Of a stretch of DNA of 64,000 bases, positions 2-32,336 are shown in pieces. The notes beneath the pieces are model-generated. The model was not told where the DNA came from, searched no databases, and saw only the letters and a list, made by a program, of their open reading frames with translations. The translations under genes and the position numbers were made by a program. Origin of the DNA: Escherichia coli (GTDB taxonomy: Bacteria > Pseudomonadota > Gammaproteobacteria > Enterobacterales > Enterobacteriaceae); assembly GCF_041886205.1 (NCBI RefSeq), contig NZ_CP169029.1; one strand, given 5' to 3'. Each line of letters begins with the position of its first letter. Position 1 is the stretch's first letter.

Positions 2-1519
<1,518 letters not shown>

Positions 1520-1591
1520 GTAAAAAAGTTAGAACGGCAACGCGTACCCTGGGTACGCGTTGTTTGTCTGGAGTTTCAGTTTAACTAGTGA

Positions 1592-2905
<1,314 letters not shown>

Positions 2906-3288
2906 TCCTGTTCTTTAACTCTTAACGTAAAAACCGCTTCGGCGGCAATGCCGATCAGTTAAGGAGCGGTTGACTGATCCTTAAACTGCGGCACTATAAC
3001 GGCTTCCACTCCAGGGAGCCGTTTTCTTATGCCACTTCTCAATGATCTGTTCGCCGCATGAGCCTCAGCGCTGATGGCGAGGTCGGAGAAAAGGTCCTGT
3101 CGCGCAATGCCATTACTCAGGCCCGGCGACGGGTGGCACCGCGCCTCTGGAATGGCTCTTTCATCAGACGGCACAGATCCGGGGAGCAGAACATTACCCC
3201 AAAGATAGCTGGCGTGTATTACAGCCCTTTGTCGTGCACGGGGGACACCGGATAGCAGGAAGTCTGGGGTATATTGCTGGCCTACAAT

Positions 3289-3370
3289 CTGATACGACGG
3301 AAAGCTACAAAGGCAGTAGAAAAGCATAAAAGAGTGCTGAAAGAAATCAGCTTCAAATTTGCCGTATCAG
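3289..3370 (+). repeat. Imperfect direct repeat, copy A (~80 bp) flanking accessory PTS/porin module
   Basis: ctgatacgacggaaagctacaaaggcagtagaaaagcataaaagagtgctgaaagaaatcagcttcaaatttgccgtatcag is repeated with roughly 85% identity at 9475..9554 in the same orientation. Confidence 0.8.
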
Positions 3371-3566
3371 AAAGTAGATGAAATCAGACATTATCTAATA
3401 TTATATTTTGGTTAAAATAGATATCAGAATTTAGCTATCCAATCGGTTTAATAAAATGAACCCGATTAAGATTGCTATGTGCTGAATGTATTTCATTTAA
3501 ATATAAATTAAAAAGTCGCCAGCAAGCTTATTTAACAGAACCGATAAAATAAAAAATGATATAAAT

Positions 3567-4613
3567 TTAGAACCAAAATTCAAGACCGGCGCGGTAAAAA
3601 TAGTCATTACTTTCTGAATTATAGGCGTCAGTTCGACCAATACGGACATAAGGGAGAAAACCATTTTCCATATTCATCATTAACTGTAAAGACGTCACTT
3701 TATCGGCGGTGTCTTTCTGGGTGACATTGTCTATTTTATAATCATTATTTTTGGCATACCCTAGCTTAGCACCATAGATACCATGCCAGTATTCGCCAAT
3801 TAAACTATAGGCATCCTGGGTGCTTTTAACATGGGTAATAAGGTCGGTCGTTTGACCATTTTTATAGCCCGCGTAAAACCTCAGACCAAGATCTGTAATG
3901 GGTATCTCGAGGCCCAAAACATAACCAGAGGCATCCTCCAGATTGTCATTTAACGTGTCATCGGTCGGTTGAACTGATTTGTTGCGAGTTTCTTCATAAG
4001 CAACATGTACTTTCACTGTAGAGAACGGCGTCCAGGTTACCCGTGAGCTGTAAGTCGTCGATCCAGAAACCGTAGAATCATCGCGATTAACGCTGAGAAC
4101 CACATCAAATCCCCCATAGTCTTTTGTTGCAAGGCTACCGTCATAGCGCACCATATTCGACATGCGATTGCTTTGATGCCAATGAACGTCACCTCCCCAG
4201 TCAAAAACGCGACCGAGACCGGGGTTGGTATAAGGCCAGTCAATGATTTCGTATAACGCCCCCTTCATGCGGCCAAAGCGAAGTTTCCCATACTTACCTT
4301 CAAACCCCACAAAGGTATCAAACTTTCCCAGACCAGAGTCGTTGGCCTCATAACCAACATAACCACTTTCAATCTGGAATATAACATTTACACCTTCAGT
4401 TATTTCTTTGTTCCCGCGAAAACCAATATATGATTCGTTATCGAGAGTATAATCATAATTCCTTTCATTGGCCTGAGTGGTAAAAATGGACATGGCTAAT
4501 TTACCATAGATTTCCAGGTTAAAATCTTTTGGCCCTCCCACTTGCATTGCATTTACTATTGTAGGCATAGTCGTAAGCAAAGAAATGCAAATAATATTAC
4601 TTGTTTTATCCAT
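3567..4613 (-). CDS. Putative outer-membrane beta-barrel porin/channel (signal peptide, C-terminal Phe)
   Basis: 348-aa ORF; N-terminal signal peptide ending ...PTIVNA; alternating hydrophobic/aromatic beta-strand pattern throughout; terminal ...GLEFWF typical of OM beta-barrels; AT-rich coding sequence. Confidence 0.7.
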   Translation of the reverse strand: MDKTSNIICISLLTTMPTIVNAMQVGGPKDFNLEIYGKLAMSIFTTQANERNYDYTLDNESYIGFRGNKEITEGVNVIFQIESGYVGYEANDSGLGKFDTFVGFEGKYGKLRFGRMKGALYEIIDWPYTNPGLGRVFDWGGDVHWHQSNRMSNMVRYDGSLATKDYGGFDVVLSVNRDDSTVSGSTTYSSRVTWTPFSTVKVHVAYEETRNKSVQPTDDTLNDNLEDASGYVLGLEIPITDLGLRFYAGYKNGQTTDLITHVKSTQDAYSLIGEYWHGIYGAKLGYAKNNDYKIDNVTQKDTADKVTSLQLMMNMENGFLPYVRIGRTDAYNSESNDYFYRAGLEFWF

Positions 4614-4833
4614 AAGTTGCCCCAGTAATTTTATATCCGAAAAGAGTAAAACCCGCCTTCATGGAGGGCTGTATTCATTACGCCATGAAAGGGCGTATTA
4701 AAATCTTTAAAAAGAAGTCTTCTGCCAGTCCTGTGAGATTTAAATCCAAAGGCAATAAGACAGAGCCAAAACCAGTGGATGACCACGCCCATAGAACGTG
4801 GTTTTCAGTTGGCAATAAATATTGAAAATAGAA

Positions 4834-5691
4834 TTATTTAGTTCTATTGATAATGTCCAGTGAAGATATTATTTTCTCCACATTATCTCCCCGATTAATA
4901 AATAATAACGCATTGAATAAAACATCAACCATAAAACTTTGTGCAGCGGTAATCGTTGATGAATCTGACTGATAAGGATTTGACGTCCCACCCGTCAGTA
5001 AGACAACATCAGCGTACTGACTTAATGAGGAATGCTTTAGTTTACTAATAACAATAGTCATCGCCCCTTTCTCTTTCACTCTTCTTAACGCATCGACAAC
5101 ATCGCGCGTTTCACCAGAGTGTGAAATCGCAACCACCACATCCTTTTTCCCAACGTTGTTCGAATTTAAGGTCATGGTATGATTGTCGATCAGAGCATCG
5201 ACGTTTGCCATAATTCTCATGAATCGATATTTGGCATACAGGACGGATATGGCTGACATACCAATGCCGTAGAAATAAACCTGCCCCGCTTTGCTCAGAC
5301 CGTCAGCTGCACGCATTAGGGTCTGTTCCTCTTGCAGGGCAAGCGTTTCATTGATAACAACGTAATTATCATTAGCCAGCTGTTGTGCAATCCCTGTCAT
5401 GGAGTTCGTCTGCTCATCAAGAGAAATCACTTTTGATAACAATGTATCGTCTGTATCTGTTTCCAGGCGAAGAGTCGTCTTTAATTCTGAAAAGCCCTTG
5501 TATCCCAGCTTTTTACAAAACCGAATAATAGACGCCTCACCAACATTCATTGCATCCGCTAATTTTGCAATGCTCATATTGATGAATTGCATACGATTAT
5601 TTTTAATAAACTGGTAAATACGTATTTCAGTCTGGGTCAATTCATTAATTCTGGTGTTAATTAACGTGTTAAAGACGACTCGGGTTTTCAT
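4834..5691 (-). CDS. RpiR-family transcriptional regulator (HTH + SIS domain)
   Basis: 285-aa ORF; N-terminal HTH segment (IAKLADAMNVGEASIIRFCKKLGYKGFSELK) and C-terminal SIS-like region (VVVAISHSGETRDV); last gene of the PTS operon, 7 bp downstream of the IIA gene. Confidence 0.85.
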   Translation of the reverse strand: MKTRVVFNTLINTRINELTQTEIRIYQFIKNNRMQFINMSIAKLADAMNVGEASIIRFCKKLGYKGFSELKTTLRLETDTDDTLLSKVISLDEQTNSMTGIAQQLANDNYVVINETLALQEEQTLMRAADGLSKAGQVYFYGIGMSAISVLYAKYRFMRIMANVDALIDNHTMTLNSNNVGKKDVVVAISHSGETRDVVDALRRVKEKGAMTIVISKLKHSSLSQYADVVLLTGGTSNPYQSDSSTITAAQSFMVDVLFNALLFINRGDNVEKIISSLDIINRTK

Positions 5692-5698
5692 TAAGTAC

Positions 5699-6004
5699 TC
5701 ACTCCATCTTTTTATAAACCTCTATCAATTCTGTCACAAGTTCACGGCAAAGCATACCTGTCATAAGGTGATCTTGGGCGTGAACCATCACCAGAGTGAT
5801 TTGCAGTTTACCTACCCCCTCATCCAGACCAATTAGCCGAGTCTGCACCTCGTGTGCCTGCCTGAAGGCATCGTCAGAAACCTTTAAAGAGGCTTCCGCT
5901 TCAGCAAAGCTCCCCGCTTTGGCGAACCTGAGCGCCTCCATGGCACAACTGCGACCTTCGCCAGCGGCGATAATCAGCGACATCACATCATTTTCATAGC
6001 TCAT
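5699..6004 (-). CDS. PTS EIIA component, lactose/cellobiose family
   Basis: 101-aa ORF with size and helical pattern of the lactose/cellobiose IIA family; conserved His region (VMVHAQDHLM). Confidence 0.85.
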   Translation of the reverse strand: MSYENDVMSLIIAAGEGRSCAMEALRFAKAGSFAEAEASLKVSDDAFRQAHEVQTRLIGLDEGVGKLQITLVMVHAQDHLMTGMLCRELVTELIEVYKKME

Positions 6005-6040
6005 TTAAATTATCTCGTGTTAGGTATCGGTGGATACGAT

Positions 6041-6352
6041 TCATTTTGATGAAATCAGATCAACGGCCTGTTGATACACTTTTTCACCATTCATAGCCCC
6101 ATACAGTAACGGGCTGATGGCCTCTGATTTCTTGCCATTCATTTCTGCCAGCTTTTGTATTTCCGTCAGCTTAAATCGAATCTGAGGCGCAACCAGTACG
6201 ACGTCATAATTCGCGATGACATCTTTCAGAACATCAACGCCGTGAGCTTCAATAACTGATTCATGGCCGACGGAATTGGCGTAATCTTTCATTCGCTTCA
6301 TTAACATTGAGGTAGACATTCCCGCAGCGCACACTAAAAGTATCTTATTCAT
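6041..6352 (-). CDS. PTS EIIB component, lactose/cellobiose family
   Basis: 103-aa ORF starting MNKILLVCAAGMSTSMLMK; the phospho-Cys loop CAAGMSTS is diagnostic of cellobiose-type IIB. Confidence 0.9.
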   Translation of the reverse strand: MNKILLVCAAGMSTSMLMKRMKDYANSVGHESVIEAHGVDVLKDVIANYDVVLVAPQIRFKLTEIQKLAEMNGKKSEAISPLLYGAMNGEKVYQQAVDLISSK

Positions 6353-6376
6353 AGCAATTACCCGTCATTGATAAAA

Positions 6377-7921
6377 TTATGTCACAGTAATATGTAAACC
6401 ACTCATCCGCCGGAAAGGGGCGGAAATGGAAGTGATCGTAGGACTGCGGCCGTTAAAGCTATAGTGAATATTTTCCATCCAGGTCTTTTCGATTTCAGAC
6501 TTAATTTTATCGAACACCATCGTTTCCTTTTCTTCAAATGAGGAATAGCTCTGGCCAATTGAAGGTAAATATTCAAACTGAACAGGGAAGCGGACTTCGG
6601 TCTGGTAAGCCCAGTCCGATACCAGCCTTTCTTTTAAGAAACGTTCGATAGCGTCAGCATTATCGCCCATGGTCGAAAAGACAAGGTTCGCTATCCCCGT
6701 ACCTAACGAATTACACGTTGTGTTCCAGCCTGCGTAGCCCTTAATGGTATCGAGTGCGCCGGCTTTATCCAGCGCCCGAATAAGTTCAGTTTCACCGCCG
6801 TTTGACATCGCCACATCGATGACTACCACTGACACCTGCAAAGCTCTGCTGGCAATTTCTTTTGCATAGGTCACCAGGTCACGATGGGTGTAGTAAGTGA
6901 TATTTTTATACTTTGGCTTCCGCACACCGGTATGCAGGTTATAGCCATAGCTAATATCAAAAGCCTCCTGCATTATCTCACCGCACCCATTGATCGCTAA
7001 AACAGGCAGCGAGGCATCATTATCGACCAACGTTATACCCGACGCGGCTGCATACGAACGCAGTGAGTGTATAAAAGGACGATCTTCATAATTCGGGATA
7101 TAGGTTTTAAACAGTTCGTTTGAATAGAGTGTGGTGGCTATAAAATCCTTTTTCCTCATCGACAAATAGGCTTTGGTCAACAATGTGCATCCAGACTCAT
7201 CGGTGCCAGGATGAACAAACACCCGGTCCTGTACCCCAAGCAGGGATATCTTTTCGTAAATGCGTTCCTGATCCTGCATCGTAAAACCAAATTCCGCGGT
7301 ATCGTCCAGCGGGATTATCAGCTGATCGATAATCTTTTCATCAACGAGTTCTATCGCATTCTCAATGAGCTGCAGATTTTTACTTCTGCGCGACAGCCAG
7401 TCGTCAAAGGAAGCAGAATTAATAGCGGAACGATGTGCAAGCAGATGCGCTTTTTCGTCTTCGCTCAGCCCGACACGCTTCTCTTTGTCAGACAGATAAC
7501 CAACCTGAAAAATTGAATGCCCGATATGTGCATAGTAATCCGGTTCTTCTTCACTGGAATTATATTTTGGCGTACGTAGCACCAGTGAAGATGCATAAAT
7601 CTTAAGTGCCGGATAACTTTCTTTCAGTGTTTTAATTTTATTTAACCTTGCTATAAGCTCAGTTAATTCCATCTGATGAATACGCGCGGGAAAAAGTCCA
7701 CCGTAGAGATACATATCCAGGCTGATAATTAACGCATCGGAATCGGCACAGTGGCTGTTTATAAAGTCATCTACAGCCTGATGTGAAGCTGGTTGTTTTT
7801 TGTATCCTAAAATCTCTTTCGCTGGCATTTTTAACGAAATATTGCTGTCCATCGAGGCCAGAGAAATCAGGAAGTCATAGTTATAAGGTCGGATATCCAG
7901 AGGTATGCTAATTATATTCAT
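6377..7921 (-). CDS. Uncharacterised 514-aa protein embedded in PTS operon (possibly DUF4127-like)
   Basis: Long intact AT-rich ORF, tightly spaced between the IIC and IIB genes (15 bp and 24 bp gaps); no signal peptide or TM segments evident; no catalytic motif I can assign by eye. The family guess comes from memory of size and PTS context only. Confidence 0.6.
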   Translation of the reverse strand: MNIISIPLDIRPYNYDFLISLASMDSNISLKMPAKEILGYKKQPASHQAVDDFINSHCADSDALIISLDMYLYGGLFPARIHQMELTELIARLNKIKTLKESYPALKIYASSLVLRTPKYNSSEEEPDYYAHIGHSIFQVGYLSDKEKRVGLSEDEKAHLLAHRSAINSASFDDWLSRRSKNLQLIENAIELVDEKIIDQLIIPLDDTAEFGFTMQDQERIYEKISLLGVQDRVFVHPGTDESGCTLLTKAYLSMRKKDFIATTLYSNELFKTYIPNYEDRPFIHSLRSYAAASGITLVDNDASLPVLAINGCGEIMQEAFDISYGYNLHTGVRKPKYKNITYYTHRDLVTYAKEIASRALQVSVVVIDVAMSNGGETELIRALDKAGALDTIKGYAGWNTTCNSLGTGIANLVFSTMGDNADAIERFLKERLVSDWAYQTEVRFPVQFEYLPSIGQSYSSFEEKETMVFDKIKSEIEKTWMENIHYSFNGRSPTITSISAPFRRMSGLHITVT

Positions 7922-7936
7922 GTGCTCTTTCTCTGA

Positions 7937-9259
7937 TTATTTCTGTTTATTCATGGCGAAAACAAATGGCAGATAAATGATAACCGACAAGCTGATTAAA
8001 AATACGGATAGCACCGCAGCTCTCCAGTCTCCTCCCGTAGCCAGGAAGGCGCTAATCACTGGTGGCGTTGTCCATGGCACAAGAACATATGTATGGTTAA
8101 TCAAATCCATTGCCGTCGCGGCATAAGCAATCACGATGCTGATAATCGGAGTGAATAAAAATGGTACAATTAGCACCGGGTTGAACATAATTGGCAAACC
8201 AAAAATGATGGGTTCATTTATGTTGAACAACATCCCAGGAGTTGCCAGACGAGTAATCGCACGATGCTCTGATTTTTTCGCTGCAATCCATAAAGCAATC
8301 AGTAAGCCGATTGTCTGGCCTCCGCCGCCCATAAATCCAAAGGCATCGATGAACGGTTTTGTGACGATATGTGGGATTTCAAGGCCAGCCTTAAACGCGG
8401 CAGTATTTTCCTGAATCGCCACCAGCAGGGTTGTCTCAGTAATAGGGTACATGATACTGGCACCATGGATCCCTGCCCACCATAATCCGTTTTGCGTCAA
8501 AAGTAGTCCTATTACTCCGCTCAGACCCTGTAAAATATTTTGCAGCGGAGCCTGAATCATCAGAGTAACGATTTCATGTATGTTTTTGTTGAAGAGACTG
8601 CTTAACGACCATGCAAAGAGACTCAGCAAGGTTAACACCAGGATCATCGGTATTAATACGTTAAAGCTCCTTGATACGGAGGGGGGAACTGAATCAGATA
8701 AAGTAATTTTCAATTTAGATGAGGCCGAAACTTTGCGAAAAAGTTCAGTGGAAATAAGCGCCACAAATATGCCTACAAACATACCAGACGCGCCACTTTC
8801 ATTGCCGCTGATTAGCCCCGAAACCTGAAAAACCTCGCCCGTCGGCGCTGTAACGGGAATGGTGACCGGGAACAAAACAAATAAACATGCCAGTGAGAAG
8901 ATGGCATACGTTATCCCATCCTCGCCATAGCTGTTGGCTAATCGATATGAAATCATCACCGTTGCCAGAAAGGCGAGAATATTCAGCGTTCCGTTATAGA
9001 CGCGGATGCCAATTTCCTGTAGGTGGCGAACCCATGCGCCTTCCAGCCCCAGAAAACCGACTAAACCGGATTCGCCGTTGAGCAATACATTATTTATTAA
9101 TATAAATAGAGACGCAGCAATAATTAAAGGCATGAGCGCGACAAATGATTCCCTCACTGCCGAAAGATGTCGCTGTCCTGAAAAATCGCCCGCCCAATTA
9201 GAGATCTTGTCAATGAAAACAAGACCACTCCCACTTTTAATTTTATTGATGAAATTCAT
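7937..9259 (-). CDS. PTS EIIC permease, lactose/cellobiose family
   Basis: 440-aa polytopic membrane protein with multiple hydrophobic segments; first gene of the operon IIC-unknown-IIB-IIA-RpiR. Confidence 0.85.
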   Translation of the reverse strand: MNFINKIKSGSGLVFIDKISNWAGDFSGQRHLSAVRESFVALMPLIIAASLFILINNVLLNGESGLVGFLGLEGAWVRHLQEIGIRVYNGTLNILAFLATVMISYRLANSYGEDGITYAIFSLACLFVLFPVTIPVTAPTGEVFQVSGLISGNESGASGMFVGIFVALISTELFRKVSASSKLKITLSDSVPPSVSRSFNVLIPMILVLTLLSLFAWSLSSLFNKNIHEIVTLMIQAPLQNILQGLSGVIGLLLTQNGLWWAGIHGASIMYPITETTLLVAIQENTAAFKAGLEIPHIVTKPFIDAFGFMGGGGQTIGLLIALWIAAKKSEHRAITRLATPGMLFNINEPIIFGLPIMFNPVLIVPFLFTPIISIVIAYAATAMDLINHTYVLVPWTTPPVISAFLATGGDWRAAVLSVFLISLSVIIYLPFVFAMNKQK

Positions 9260-9474
9260 ATAAGAAAATCTCGCGCCCTAGATATTAGTTTCAGCGTATT
9301 TTATTTATCCCCTTTCGTAATACTGTTAGCTTTGTCACAAAACTCCAAAAATTCCAACTAAAATGATACTAAATGGAGTTTTTTTGGTTTTGTAATCTAC
9401 CGTTCTGGAGTCTGGTATTAACAATAAAAGCGGCTTTCGCAGGAGGATAAATCATCAGCATTTGTCCAGACAAG

Positions 9475-9554
9475 CTGATACGACGGGAAGCTATAAAGGT
9501 ACAGAAAAGCATAAAAGAGCGCCGTTAGAAATCAGCTTTAAATTTGCCTTTCAG
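9475..9554 (+). repeat. Imperfect direct repeat, copy B (partner of 3289..3370)
   Basis: ctgatacgacgggaagctataaaggtacagaaaagcataaaagagcgccgttagaaatcagctttaaatttgcctttcag; same orientation as copy A. Confidence 0.8.
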
Positions 9555-9759
9555 TTTATACAACAGAAATGATAGTGCCGGGAAACACGTCGTCGCCGGG
9601 AATGCTCCCAAGAGACTGGAGTATCGGAGGGGAAACCTGGAAGCGCTGTTCATAACAAAACGCCCCGACCGTCAAGGCCGCGGGTGGTGAAGATATCAAA
9701 ACGTCCATGCTGTTCCGCTTAAGTGAACGGCATTGCGCTGCAGTGGGTTTTTTATGCCT

Positions 9760-10584
9760 TCAAAGTAGTAGCGGTAGGGTCGCACTCGCCGTTTGCTGGC
9801 TCACATCGTTGTACTTTTCATCCAGTCCAAACAGCGACGTGGTGAGCAGTTCCACCAACAGCATGACACCAACCTTGGCGTTTAGCGCGCCAGCACTCAA
9901 CGGACCTTCTGGTTTGGCTGCGACCAGTTGAATATCACTCAGCGAAGCCAGCGGACTATGCGGTGTATTACTCAGCGCCAGTATGCGTACACCTTGCTTA
10001 CGCGCCAGTTTAACCACATGCAGCAGATCGCGTGTGGAGCCTGAACTGGATATTGCCACTACCAGCGTGTCTTTGCTTAGCGTTGTAGCGTTCATAGCAG
10101 CACGGTGCATGTCGCTGAACAATTGCGCGGGTTTGCCGAGGCGCAGGAGTTTGTAATGTAAATACTCTCCCAGAATAGCGCTGGCCGCTACGCCATAAAT
10201 TTGTACCGACTGAGCCTGATGCAGCGCCAGAGCGGCTGCTTCCAGTAATGTTCTGTCGAGTAATTTTGCCGTGTCCTGCAGCGCTTGCACGGATTCATTG
10301 ACGACATTGTCAATCTCATCACCGCTGCGCTCTACCAGCTCTCCTTGCCGGAGATCGAGTGCCAGCGCCATCTTAAATTCGTTATAGCCCTTACACCCCA
10401 GCGTACGGCACAGACGTGTGACGCTCGCCTCGCTGGTGTCGCTTTCACGCGCCAGTTCGGTAATCGTCAGGTAGACCACTCTTGCCGGATCGCTAAGCAC
10501 AAACTCTCCCAGCTTCTGTTGAGTTCGACTATATCCATCAACGCTCTGGCGCAATCTCAGCAGTAGGTTTTCATTTTCTGACAT
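9760..10584 (-). CDS. RpiR/MurR-like transcriptional regulator (HTH + SIS)
   Basis: 274-aa ORF; N-terminal HTH (ITELARESDTSEASVTRLCRTLGCKGYNEFK), SIS-type C-terminal domain (LVVAISSSGSTRDL); divergent from the EIICB gene. Confidence 0.85.
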   Translation of the reverse strand: MSENENLLLRLRQSVDGYSRTQQKLGEFVLSDPARVVYLTITELARESDTSEASVTRLCRTLGCKGYNEFKMALALDLRQGELVERSGDEIDNVVNESVQALQDTAKLLDRTLLEAAALALHQAQSVQIYGVAASAILGEYLHYKLLRLGKPAQLFSDMHRAAMNATTLSKDTLVVAISSSGSTRDLLHVVKLARKQGVRILALSNTPHSPLASLSDIQLVAAKPEGPLSAGALNAKVGVMLLVELLTTSLFGLDEKYNDVSQQTASATLPLLL

Positions 10585-10710
10585 GCAAAATCCTTAATGC
10601 GTTTCTCTGCCGATAGTGTGGCGGAAAGTAGGGGAGAGATGCTAGTCATTTTAAAAAAGTATGATCGGTGCCCTGGTTTTTGATGGTAATTTTCATTTTT
10701 ATAATTAGTT

Positions 10711-12306
10711 GTGGTAAAAATTTTCATCAAAGAGCGGGGAGATGAAAAAATGATGCAAATATTTAGCGGCGCTTCGTCAGGCGCATGGTTTGAAAAAGCG
10801 CAGCGGTTCGGCAAATCGTTCATGCTGCCGATTGCGGTATTGCCCGCAGCGGGGTTGTTGTTGGGGATTGGTGGGGCTCTGTCGAATCCCAATACGCTGA
10901 CGGCCTACCCATTCTTGAATGTCGACTGGCTGCAGGCAATTTTCACGATCATGACCAGCGCAGGTTCTATCGTGTTTGCCAACCTGTCGGTGCTTTTTGC
11001 GGTTGGTGTTGCCGTGGGACTGGCGAAAACGGATAAAGGCACGGCGGGCCTTGCGGCATTGCTGGCTTTTCTGGTGATGAATGCCACCATCAATGCTTTG
11101 TTAACGCTCAACGGAACGTTGGCGCACGAAAATCCAGGTGCTGTGGGCCAAGGGATGACGCTGGGCATTCAGACGCTGGAAACGGGCGTTTTTGGCGGGG
11201 TCGTGATTGGTCTGGTCACCTGCGCACTGCATAACCGTTTCAATAAAGTCTCACTCCCTCAGTTTCTTGGCTTTTTCAGTGGTTCGCGTTTTGTACCGAT
11301 TATCAGTTCGCTTGCCGCGATTGTAGTGGGGGTGATCATGACGGTGGTATGGCCGCATTTCCAGAAGCTCATTTTTGGACTGGGCGGTCTGGTGGATGCG
11401 ACGGGCTATCTGGGGACGCTACTGTATGGTTTCATTCTGCGTATGCTTGGCCCACTGGGTTTACACCATATCTTTTATTTGCCGTTCTGGACAACAGCGC
11501 TGGGAGGGAGCGAAATCGTCAACGGTCAACTGGTCGAAGGCACCCAGCGTATTTTCTTTGCCCAACTTGCCGATCCGAATACGCAGCAGTTTTATGCCGG
11601 TACCTCGCGCTTTATGTCCGGGCGCTTTATCACCATGATGTTTGGCCTGCTTGGCGCATGCCTCGCGATGTACCACACGGCAAAACCGGAGAAGAGAAAG
11701 CTTGTCGCCGGACTGCTGTTGTCGGCGGCCCTGACTTCTTTCCTGACGGGCATCACTGAGCCTATTGAGTTCTCCTTCCTGTTTGTGGCTCCGGTGTTAT
11801 ATGTCATTCACGCCTTCTTCGATGGTCTGGCGTTTATGATGGCGCATATTTTACATATCACTATTGGGCAAACCTTTTCGGGTGGACTGATCGATTTCCT
11901 CCTCTTCGGCGTGCTACAGGGGGAAGCGAAAACCAACTGGATGTACGTCCCCTTGGTTGGGGTTCCGTGGTTCTTTCTTTACTACTTCACCTTCCGTTAT
12001 TTGATTAACCGTTTTAACTGGCTGACGCCCGGGCGCGAGAACACAGCCCAGGTGGAGTCCGGTCTGCCTCAGAGCGAACGCGCAGCGGCAGTCATCGCCG
12101 GACTGGGAGGCAAAGAGAATCTGGAAGAGGTGGACTGTTGCGCCACACGCTTACGCGTGACGGTGAAAGAGAGCAGCAAGGTAGATGAAGCTGCGCTGAA
12201 AGCGACCGGAGCGCGTGGCGTAATTATTCGCGGCAACGGTGTTCAGGTGATTTATGGCCCGCATGTCACCATAATTAAAAATGAAGTCGAAGAGATCTTA
12301 TCATGA
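10711..12306 (+). CDS. PTS EIICB component, glucose/N-acetylglucosamine superfamily
   Basis: 531-aa ORF; N-terminal IIC membrane domain, C-terminal IIB domain with the phospho-Cys motif ([11 protein letters not shown]). The start may instead be an internal Met at about 10750 (MMQIFSG...). Stop overlaps the next gene's start (ATGA). Confidence 0.85.
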
Positions 12307-14077: not shown

Positions 14078-14350
14078 GAGTTCCCCGCGCCAGCGGGGAT
14101 AAACCGTTCGCTGGCAATCCACTCAGGAATTTCGGGAAGAGTTCCCCGCGCCAGCGGGGATAAACCGGGCAGTACCGACATGGACGGTCACCACGAGTTG
14201 AGTTCCCCGCGCCAGCGGGGATAAACCGTGTATAGCGCCAAAATTGACGAAAGACATGTTGAGTTCCCCGCGCCAGCGGGGATAAACCGGTTGTAGCTGA
14301 CAATGTAAATCATGGATTTACGAGTTCCCCGTGCCAGCGGGGATAACCAT
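14078..14350 (+). CRISPR. Type I-E CRISPR array: 5 repeats (last degenerate), 4 spacers of 32 bp
   Basis: 29-bp repeat GAGTTCCCCGCGCCAGCGGGGATAAACCG at 14078, 14139, 14200, 14261; degenerate terminal repeat gagttccccgtgccagcggggataaccat at 14322..14350. Spacers at 14107..14138, 14168..14199, 14229..14260, 14290..14321. Confidence 0.97.
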
Positions 14351-22063: not shown

Positions 22064-22214
22064 GTGTTCCCCGCGCCAGCGGGGATAAACCGCCATTCTT
22101 GTTGTCGTTCATCAAGCGCAGGGGGTGTTCCCCGCGCCAGCGGGGATAAACCGGGTAAATAACACAGCGTTTGAAACAGGCAAAAGTGTTCCCCGCGCCA
22201 GCGGGGATAAACCG
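22064..22214 (+). CRISPR. Residual type I-E CRISPR array (iap-proximal): 3 repeats, 2 spacers, no leader
   Basis: Repeat GTGTTCCCCGCGCCAGCGGGGATAAACCG at 22064, 22125, 22186; 32-bp spacers at 22093..22124 and 22154..22185. Differs from the queE-adjacent array repeat at position 2 (T vs A). Confidence 0.95.
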
Positions 22215-31196: not shown

Positions 31197-32336
31197 ATGA
31201 GCGCGGGAAGCCCAAAATTCACCGTTCGCCGCATTGCGGCTTTGTCACTGGTTTCGCTATGGCTGGCAGGCTGTTCTGACACTTCAAATCCACCGGCACC
31301 GGTCAGCTCCGTTAATGGCAATGCGCCTGCAAATACCAATTCTGGTATGTTGATTACGCCGCCGCCGAAAATGGGGACGACGTCTACAACCCAGCAACCG
31401 CAAATTCAGCCGGTACAGCAGCCACAAATTCAGGCTACTCAACAACCGCAAATCCAGCCAGTGCAGCCAGTAGCTCAGCAGCCGGTACAGATGGAAAACG
31501 GACGCATCGTCTACAACCGTCAGTATGGGAACATTCCGAAAGGCAGTTATAGCGGCAGTACCTATACCGTGAAAAAAGGCGACACACTTTTCTATATCGC
31601 CTGGATTACTGGCAACGATTTCCGTGACCTTGCTCAGCGCAACAATATTCAGGCACCATACGCGCTGAACGTAGGTCAGACCTTACAGGTGGGGAATGCT
31701 TCCGGTACGCCAATCACTGGCGGAAATGCCATTACCCAGGCCGACGCAGCAGAGCAAGGAGTTGTGATCAAGCCTGCACAAAATTCCACCGTTGCTGTTG
31801 CGTCGCAACCGACAATTACGTATTCTGAGTCTTCGGGTGAACAGAGTGCTAACAAAATGTTGCCTAACAACAAGCCAACTGCGACCACGGTCACAGCGCC
31901 TGTAACGGTACCAACAGCAAGCACAACCGAGCCGACTGTCAGCAGTACATCAACCAGTACGCCTATCTCCACCTGGCGCTGGCCGACTGAGGGCAAAGTG
32001 ATCGAAACCTTTGGCGCTTCTGAGGGGGGCAACAAGGGGATTGATATCGCAGGCAGCAAAGGACAGGCAATTATCGCGACCGCAGATGGCCGCGTTGTTT
32101 ATGCCGGTAACGCGCTGCGCGGCTACGGTAATCTGATTATCATCAAACATAATGATGATTACCTGAGTGCCTACGCCCATAACGACACAATGCTGGTCCG
32201 GGAACAACAAGAAGTGAAGGCGGGGCAAAAAATAGCAACCATGGGTAGCACCGGAACCAGTTCAACACGCTTGCATTTTGAAATTCGTTACAAGGGGAAA
32301 TCCGTAAACCCGCTGCGTTATTTGCCGCAGCGATAA
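31197..32336 (+). CDS. nlpD: Murein hydrolase activator lipoprotein NlpD (LysM + M23 domain)
   Basis: 379-aa ORF; lipobox (LAGCSD), Q/P-rich repeats (QQPQIQP), LysM region and C-terminal LytM/M23 domain. Confidence 0.95.

Follow-up and report, generated by a model that had tools for sequence, protein, structure and literature searches.

The window examined here, a 64,000-nt stretch of the Escherichia coli contig NZ_CP169029.1, raises the following question: what is the origin of the approximately 450 bp on the 3′ side of the eno stop codon (2903–2905; the eno ORF ends at 2905), which have a GC content of 51–59% and carry no intact gene? The first-pass annotation had described a non-coding stretch of normal GC content without an intact ORF, in which only short ORFs of 122 aa (minus strand) and 65 aa (plus strand) are found, and the GC scan and the ORF list agreed with it on each of these points. 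The GC content is 0.515–0.595 across 2900–3299, and the GC-normal label is therefore right; it then falls to 0.275–0.30 by 3300–3599, and the block of normal composition ends at approximately 3362, not at 3288. The ORFs are located at 2959–3327 (122 aa, minus strand) and 3058–3255 (65 aa, plus strand, together with a nested 44-aa ORF). The absence of a long ORF over approximately 400 bp is unremarkable alone; judged from the alignments, it is the homology to IS4-family elements that makes the feature real. The RefSeq annotation of an identical genome shows no feature between eno and the next gene, which encodes a porin. In megablast searches, the whole stretch 2880–3420 was present in just 11 of 5,426 complete E. 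coli genomes, while 2934–3053 gave matches of approximately 91% to a locus annotated as 'IS4 family transposase' in approximately 1,935 E. coli genomes.

The left IS piece

The stretch following eno is very likely a fossil: the left half of an insertion sequence of the IS4 subgroup, with ISZ/insZ of K-12 as a relative. As a reference, we used an intact relative carried by the plasmid NZ_CP062843.1: it is 1430 bp long and encodes a 445-aa transposase with the Nterm_IS4 and DDE_Tnp_1 domains, which matches NCBIfam NF033592 ('IS4 family transposase'). The first 29 nt after eno (2906–2934, plus strand), including an A-run at 2929–2933, are the 3′ flank of eno and correspond to the left arm of the bidirectional terminator that originally followed this gene. 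The IS left end then occupies 2946–3053 (plus strand; IS nt 1–108), with the terminal inverted repeat CAATGCCGATCAGTTAAGG, a GATC-site palindrome, a hairpin and the start of the transposase gene. Its identity is 95.4% to the intact plasmid element and 92.6% to K-12 ISZ, and blastn likewise aligned 2944–3053 at 95% with the left end of the intact IS4-family element. The transposase pseudogene begins with an ATG at 3029 and reads MPLLNDLFAA before a stop after ten codons (3029–3061, plus strand); its first 8 codons, lying within the left end, match the reference.

Two internal deletions shape the rest of this piece. The first removed IS nt 109–302 and is followed by a fragment of the transposase N-terminal domain at 3049–3248 (plus strand; residues ~74–140 with one frameshift; IS nt 303 to ~503), which was detected by blastn at 71% and by tblastn with E = 7.6e-15, and gave a weak Nterm_IS4 match (E = 0.054). 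The second removed IS nt ~504–1115 ahead of 3256, and with them most of the DDE_Tnp_1 (DDE) domain. Beyond it, a C-terminal fragment remains at 3256–3362 (plus strand; residues 345–380, QEVWGILLAYNLIRRKATKAVEKHKRVLKEISFKFA), corresponding to IS nt 1116–1222 with 75% identity to the reference (tblastn: 81% identity, E = 2.8e-13). In the transposase of the intact relative, DDE_Tnp_1 spans residues 129–356; in the window, residues ~141–344, that is most of the domain, are deleted.

These fragments bear directly on whether either short ORF is a real gene, as their being open might suggest, and we regard this as highly improbable. Neither ORF has a significant Pfam match, and RefSeq annotates nothing from eno to the porin gene. 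The 65-aa ORF is, in fossil form, part of the N-terminal transposase domain and carries a frameshift; the 122-aa ORF lies antisense to the pseudogene and crosses two of its deletion junctions. A decayed gene native to the eno-queE slot (ygcG/yqcG, or the LemA/TPM genes) is suggested by position alone, since the slot holds such genes in other lineages; its probability is close to nil. The sequence departs from that of K-12 right after the eno stop codon. The comparison that had been asked for, with the K-12 slot proteins YqcG and YgcG together with LemA, TPM and a 120-aa hypothetical protein, yielded no tblastn match in 2906–9800, and a blastn search of the whole eno-queE slots of K-12 and of strain AMSHJX01 against the window gave matches only next to queE. 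Thus, the earlier suggestion of decayed gene remains was sound, but the gene is that of an IS4-family transposase, not a slot gene.

A clear contrast is seen between the left end (95%) and the interior (~72%) of the piece. Fusion of a recent IS end to an older relic was considered for this and rejected as unnecessary: the same contrast occurs in copies from other genera (96% vs 69–84%), a comparison weakened by the selection of these copies through their hairpin motif. Overall, the left 108 nt of the other-genera copies are 92–97% identical and the adjoining coding part 58–84%; the copies that served to judge the conservation of the hairpin and of the left end had been picked because they match the hairpin exactly, and the conservation figure is inflated thereby. 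An intact IS of the same diverged lineage was not found among plasmids (best match ~77%), and none of 12 genomic loci with the hairpin motif was closer to the IS interior in the window. The left piece is an unannotated, diverged member of a known IS4-subgroup kind, and as such ordinary genomic debris. Its identification removes a candidate 'mystery non-coding locus' and supplies an annotation that RefSeq lacks.

The right IS piece and the target site

The other end of the element was found 6.4 kb from the left piece, past a gene cluster for sugar uptake. At 9470–9735 (plus strand), IS nt 1144–1430 are recognizable: they contain transposase residues ~356–445 with frameshifts and stops, and the right terminal inverted repeat. 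The transposase fragment was detected by tblastn (E = 1.7e-8) and by blastn (78%); 9470–9701 matches IS nt 1144–1379 at 78%, and 9714–9735 is identical to the last 22 nt of the reference. In the near-identical genome LHM10-1, RefSeq labels this piece 'IS4 family transposase, frameshifted, incomplete'. The first-pass annotation had paired the stretch after eno with 9555–9759, and correctly so: that region falls inside the right-end IS fragment.

Three features connect the two pieces. One is that the end motif AATGCCGNTCANTTAAG occurs without mismatch exactly twice in the 64 kb, at 2947–2963 (plus) and 9718–9734 (minus); since these two occurrences are the only ones and are inverted, there is one left end (2946) and one right end (9735). 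Another is that both pieces contain IS nt 1144–1222, which form an 87% direct repeat (3284–3362 vs 9470–9548); the two copies of this overlap are 87% identical to each other vs 72–77% to the reference, and are thus each other's closest relative. The last is a probable target-site duplication. Its left copy, the 11-bp CGCTTCGGCGG at 2935–2945, forms with C2934 a small hairpin, CCGC-TTCG-GCGG; its right copy, CGCTGCAGTGG at 9736–9746, is followed by a G and a T-run (9748–9753), and 9736–9753 represents the right arm of the terminator in its ancestral form. The stop codon of the MurR/RpiR gene lies at 9760. The two copies agree at 8 of 11 positions and stand where a duplication is expected; by a hand estimate, the chance of such a match is p ~0.001 with uniform composition and ~0.01 when matched to the composition of both 11-mers. 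Because the duplication has 3 mismatches in 11, the pairing of the ends is probable, not proven. The duplications of the relatives are perfect: 11 bp for the plasmid element, 10 bp for K-12 ISZ and 12 bp for IS4 proper.

According to the definition of the IS4 subgroup, the ends read -AATR--------WTW-, the duplications are 10–13 bp and the size is 1400–1650 bp (PMC2266710). The ends in the window carry this signature, with CAATGCCGATCAGTTAAGG at 2946 and, in inverted orientation, CAATGCCGTTCACTTAAGC, which ends at 9735; those of the intact relatives are CAATG... and ...CATTG. As for the length, 417 bp and 266 bp of IS-derived sequence remain with 6.1 kb between them, and instead of a single-ORF transposase with Nterm_IS4 and a YREK-bearing DDE_Tnp_1, residues 1–8, 74–140, 345–380 and 356–445 are left. 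The fragments are homologous to the transposase but its core is deleted, and the element is therefore the relic of a member of the subgroup, not a functional member. With two internal deletions, frameshifts and stop codons, both IS pieces are dead.

The site of insertion was clarified by the flanks. Outside the duplication, the left flank reads AAAAA and the right flank GTTTTTT, similar to the respective halves of AAAAAACCCGCTTCTTGAAGCGGGTTTTTTT, which is the intact terminator located 3′ of eno in E. coli strain AMSHJX01; 2946–9735 thus appears to be an insertion into an eno terminator hairpin. The target arms in the window consist of A5 plus 12 nt before the IS, and 12 nt plus T6 after it. 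A comparison by left flank of 15 independent insertions (E. coli chromosome and plasmids, IS4 proper, and copies in ten other genera) revealed an A-run followed by 12–15 GC-rich nt directly before the IS end in 10 of them, against a background of 5% (P = 2e-10). K-12 ISZ splits AAA-CGGCCCCTTCTGGGGCCGTA-TTT, which is the adhE terminator, and the K-12 IS4 copy sits in an AAA-N20-TTT site. A target consensus of this form, AAA-N20-TTT, was reportedly proposed for IS4 in the 1980s. The position in the window may accordingly reflect a preference of the IS group for terminator-like targets composed of an A-run, a GC-rich hairpin and a T-run. It was also observed that Tenebrionibacter intestinalis, whose Eno protein is 97% identical, carries an independent ISZ-like copy 27 nt after its own eno stop codon, in the eno terminator of that species; the target is thus shared with the window across two genera.

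On the minus strand, the hairpin of 2935–2945 is followed by a T-run and is thus a terminator-like site for transcripts derived from the island; the terminator scan listed minus-strand sites of this kind at 2946..2933 and 2954..2939. Judged from its sequence, the half-terminator at 2929–2945 could stop antisense transcription that leaves the island toward eno. A hairpin at the right end (9730–9746) was not significant (z = 0.13).

The gene module between the two IS pieces

The space between the pieces is occupied by a six-gene module on the minus strand (3363–9391), whose products were assigned by Pfam to a PTS IIC component, a DUF4127 protein, IIB, IIA, an RpiR/SIS regulator and a porin. The module is 82–87% identical in two unrelated chromosomal contexts of other bacteria with no IS nearby; in one it lies next to pgaABCD and in the other next to a giant BapA-like adhesin gene, and mobility genes are absent from both. 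The homology to these relatives begins at 3362, with the final base of the left IS piece, and the left piece and the module therefore abut. On the other side, 78 nt (9392–9469) separate the module from the right IS piece; they match neither the IS nor the module relatives. Specifically, no homology to either of the two module-bearing loci was found in 9392–9469, and local alignments of 9392–9469 and of 3363–3570 with the IS were no better than those of shuffled controls. The module occurs in 9 of the 5,426 complete E. coli genomes, always at the eno site; megablast gave no match on plasmids, and a literature search for insZ and DUF4127 returned essentially nothing.

On the simplest reading of these alignments, the module would be flanked on both sides by the same diverged ISZ-like element, present as two direct repeats whose inner parts were later lost. 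Such an arrangement may have arisen in either of two ways: a composite unit transposed, or a circle bearing the IS recombined with a resident copy. The weaker alternative involves one IS copy only: it would have landed in the eno terminator and received the 6-kb module later by illegitimate recombination, with the 79-nt overlap duplicated on that occasion. One pair of ends and one target duplication are what this history would leave; moreover, the module moves without an IS in two other genomes, and the left piece meets the module homology exactly at 3362/3363. We nevertheless consider it unlikely, because no mechanism by which such modules insert is known to leave a 79-bp duplication, the copies of the repeat have diverged by 13% from each other, and two direct IS copies account for the overlap without a special event. 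With respect to the two marks of a composite transposon, the IS-module-IS unit was seen at the eno site only, in 9 genomes, and two IS copies are suggested by the presence of IS nt 1144–1222 in both pieces (87%), which may also stem from a duplication within a single copy. The identification of the IS relic would, as we read it, date and explain the arrival of a rare PTS/DUF4127/porin island at the eno-queE hotspot.

The module island seems to be decaying. Younger ISs are present in the module of 5 of the 9 carriers: ISEc52 in the DUF4127 gene (LHM10-1 and CP52E) and IS1A in the IIC gene (AH04, AH02 and CT01). Two E. coli genomes, VE-T9 and XJ5.2, retain the left IS relic but show a clean 7.4-kb deletion corresponding to window 3520–10913; the module and the right IS piece are gone, together with the MurR/RpiR gene and the 5′ portion of the ptsG-like gene.

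Several features of the surrounding window were recorded in addition. The segment 9760–13000, with genes for MurR/RpiR, a ptsG-like IIBC and N-acetylmannosamine-6-P epimerase by queE, is present at ≥ 99% identity in just 11 genomes, and a paralogous or xenologous copy of these genes (88–90%) exists in approximately 470 other E. coli genomes; in H41, the one genome of that set examined, this 88–90% copy occupies a different locus within an IS-littered island. Two short CRISPR arrays of type I-E style, built from perfect copies of the repeat GTTCCCCGCGCCAGCGGGGATAAACCG, are located at 14080–14289 (4 repeats) and 22066–22214 (3 repeats). The second of them is preceded in LHM10-1 by a truncated cas3 pseudogene, and the CRISPR-Cas system therefore looks degraded. 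A 24-nt tandem repeat of 2.7 copies, CAACCGCAAATTCAGCCGACACAA, is found at 31395–31459, within nlpD by position.

The leader hairpin and comparison with known elements

The terminator scan predicted, as the present eno terminator, a 10-bp hairpin (2998–3023) followed by a U-tract (2998–3028 in total, plus strand). The U-tract stops 2 nt short of the transposase ATG (3029), and a ribosome-binding site, GGGAG, lies in the 3′ arm of the hairpin. The hairpin has an MFE of −22.5 kcal/mol (z = −7.2), and its stem is kept in 14 copies from several genera, which were themselves selected by the hairpin motif. The corresponding hairpin of K-12 can be compared with published Term-seq data: in MG1655, an RNA 3′ end classified as 'orphan' was mapped at 1,295,324(−) under three conditions with 51,000–100,000 reads (PMC7815308, supplementary file 1). 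The sequence at this end, ...AACGGCTTCCACAACAGGGAGCCGTTTTCT before it and TATGCC after it, places it at IS nt 82, on the U-tract of the ISZ hairpin, at a position homologous to approximately 3027 in the window. It is probably the real end of the adhE transcript. In the Term-seq tables, no 3′ end was found near IS4/insG or near the K-12 eno terminator. By analogy with the ISZ end, the pyrG-eno transcript is probably terminated near 3027 by the IS hairpin, leaving an eno 3′ UTR of approximately 120 nt. The idea of a long 3′ UTR thus holds for the first ~120 nt, which, from the homology to the K-12 ISZ Term-seq end, very probably belong to eno. The IS-borne terminator is the sole probable present-day function of the relic.

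The same data bear on the proposal of an independent small RNA or of a functional long 3′ UTR regulator. The region 2906–3040 is strongly structured (z = −3.9), 2996–3032 shows a weak Rfam match to ctRNA_p42d (RF00489; E = 1.8e-4), and the homologous hairpin of K-12 yields an abundant 'orphan' RNA 3′ end. However, the ctRNA_p42d match scored 33.7 bits against a gathering score of 50 and amounts to a hairpin followed by a U-tract; the structure is entirely that of the conserved IS leader, which is present in many genomic contexts; and no plus-strand terminator or promoter was supported beyond 3028. In a permissive Rfam scan of 1400–11000, ctRNA_p42d was the sole family with E ≤ 1, and no family reached its gathering score; the sRNA locus considered in the first-pass annotation is therefore without support as a separate gene, and we judge this explanation improbable.

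Returning to the hairpin as a terminator, we tentatively propose that ISZ-like elements may be terminator-seeking, landing in the hairpin of a gene's intrinsic terminator, and may bring a replacement terminator with them in the form of the leader hairpin before the transposase start. By ending the transcript of the upstream gene, the leader hairpin would both protect the transposase against read-through and make good the harm done to the host gene. If this is true, it would account for the survival of ISZ-like relics downstream of highly expressed genes, namely eno in two genera and adhE in K-12, and for a 108-nt left end that remains more than 90% identical while the coding part drifts to ~70%; the eno copy would further show that ISZ-like elements can bracket and deliver a 6-kb metabolic module. 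The matter is of little consequence for biology at large, but IS relics can carry functional transcription signals for their neighbors.

Relatives of the element are also found in shortened forms. Internally deleted derivatives exist in other Enterobacterales, including one of ~325 bp in Enterobacter asburiae that consists of the left and right ends only; they look like miniature non-autonomous elements or deletion relics. In addition, a 241-bp scaffold of Corynebacterium striatum ATCC 6940 is identical to the adhE/ISZ junction of E. coli K-12 over the 45 nt compared (left flank with IS end), and its IS portion has the same identity to the IS reference as K-12 ISZ; from this sequence match, the scaffold very probably represents E. 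coli contamination.

Among known systems, the IS4-family composite transposons Tn10/IS10 and Tn5/IS50 resemble the arrangement proposed for the window in that cargo lies between two copies of one IS, the outer ends are intact and a target duplication surrounds the unit, whereas in the window the copies are direct, not inverted, and both are dead. Since they are dead and no second site of the unit is known, the structure is at best a fossil composite transposon. IS4 proper (insG of K-12) shares the first 35 nt of the left end at 91–97% identity, and has a hairpin and T-run directly before the ATG as in the window, of different sequence; its 12-bp duplication lies inside an AAA-N20-TTT target, and it fits the definition of the IS4 subgroup. 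Its transposase is 39% identical, and it is therefore a different element of the same subgroup. The intact 1430-bp element (NZ_CP062843.1 33003–34432), found on virulence-type plasmids of E. coli, shares the terminal repeats, the leader and the gene order, and has an 11-bp duplication; it is presumably active, whereas the window holds relics that are ~77% identical overall.

The closest parallel is K-12 ISZ (b4573), which the MG1655 annotation gives as the mobile element ISZ with the pseudogene insZ between adhE and tdk. It shares with the window relic the left end (92.6% over 108 nt), the right terminal repeat and the position of the hairpin, which immediately precedes the ATG of the transposase; it too is internally deleted (989 bp vs 1430 bp) and lies in the terminator hairpin of the upstream gene with a duplication of 10–11 bp. 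The two differ in that the window relic is split by 6 kb of cargo and is far more degraded. ISZ is 92–93% identical to the plasmid element along its full length, while the interior pieces in the window are 71–78% identical, and the latter thus derive from a more distant lineage. If the Term-seq analogy holds, the most probable eno terminator in this lineage comes from a dead IS, much as that of adhE probably comes from ISZ in K-12.
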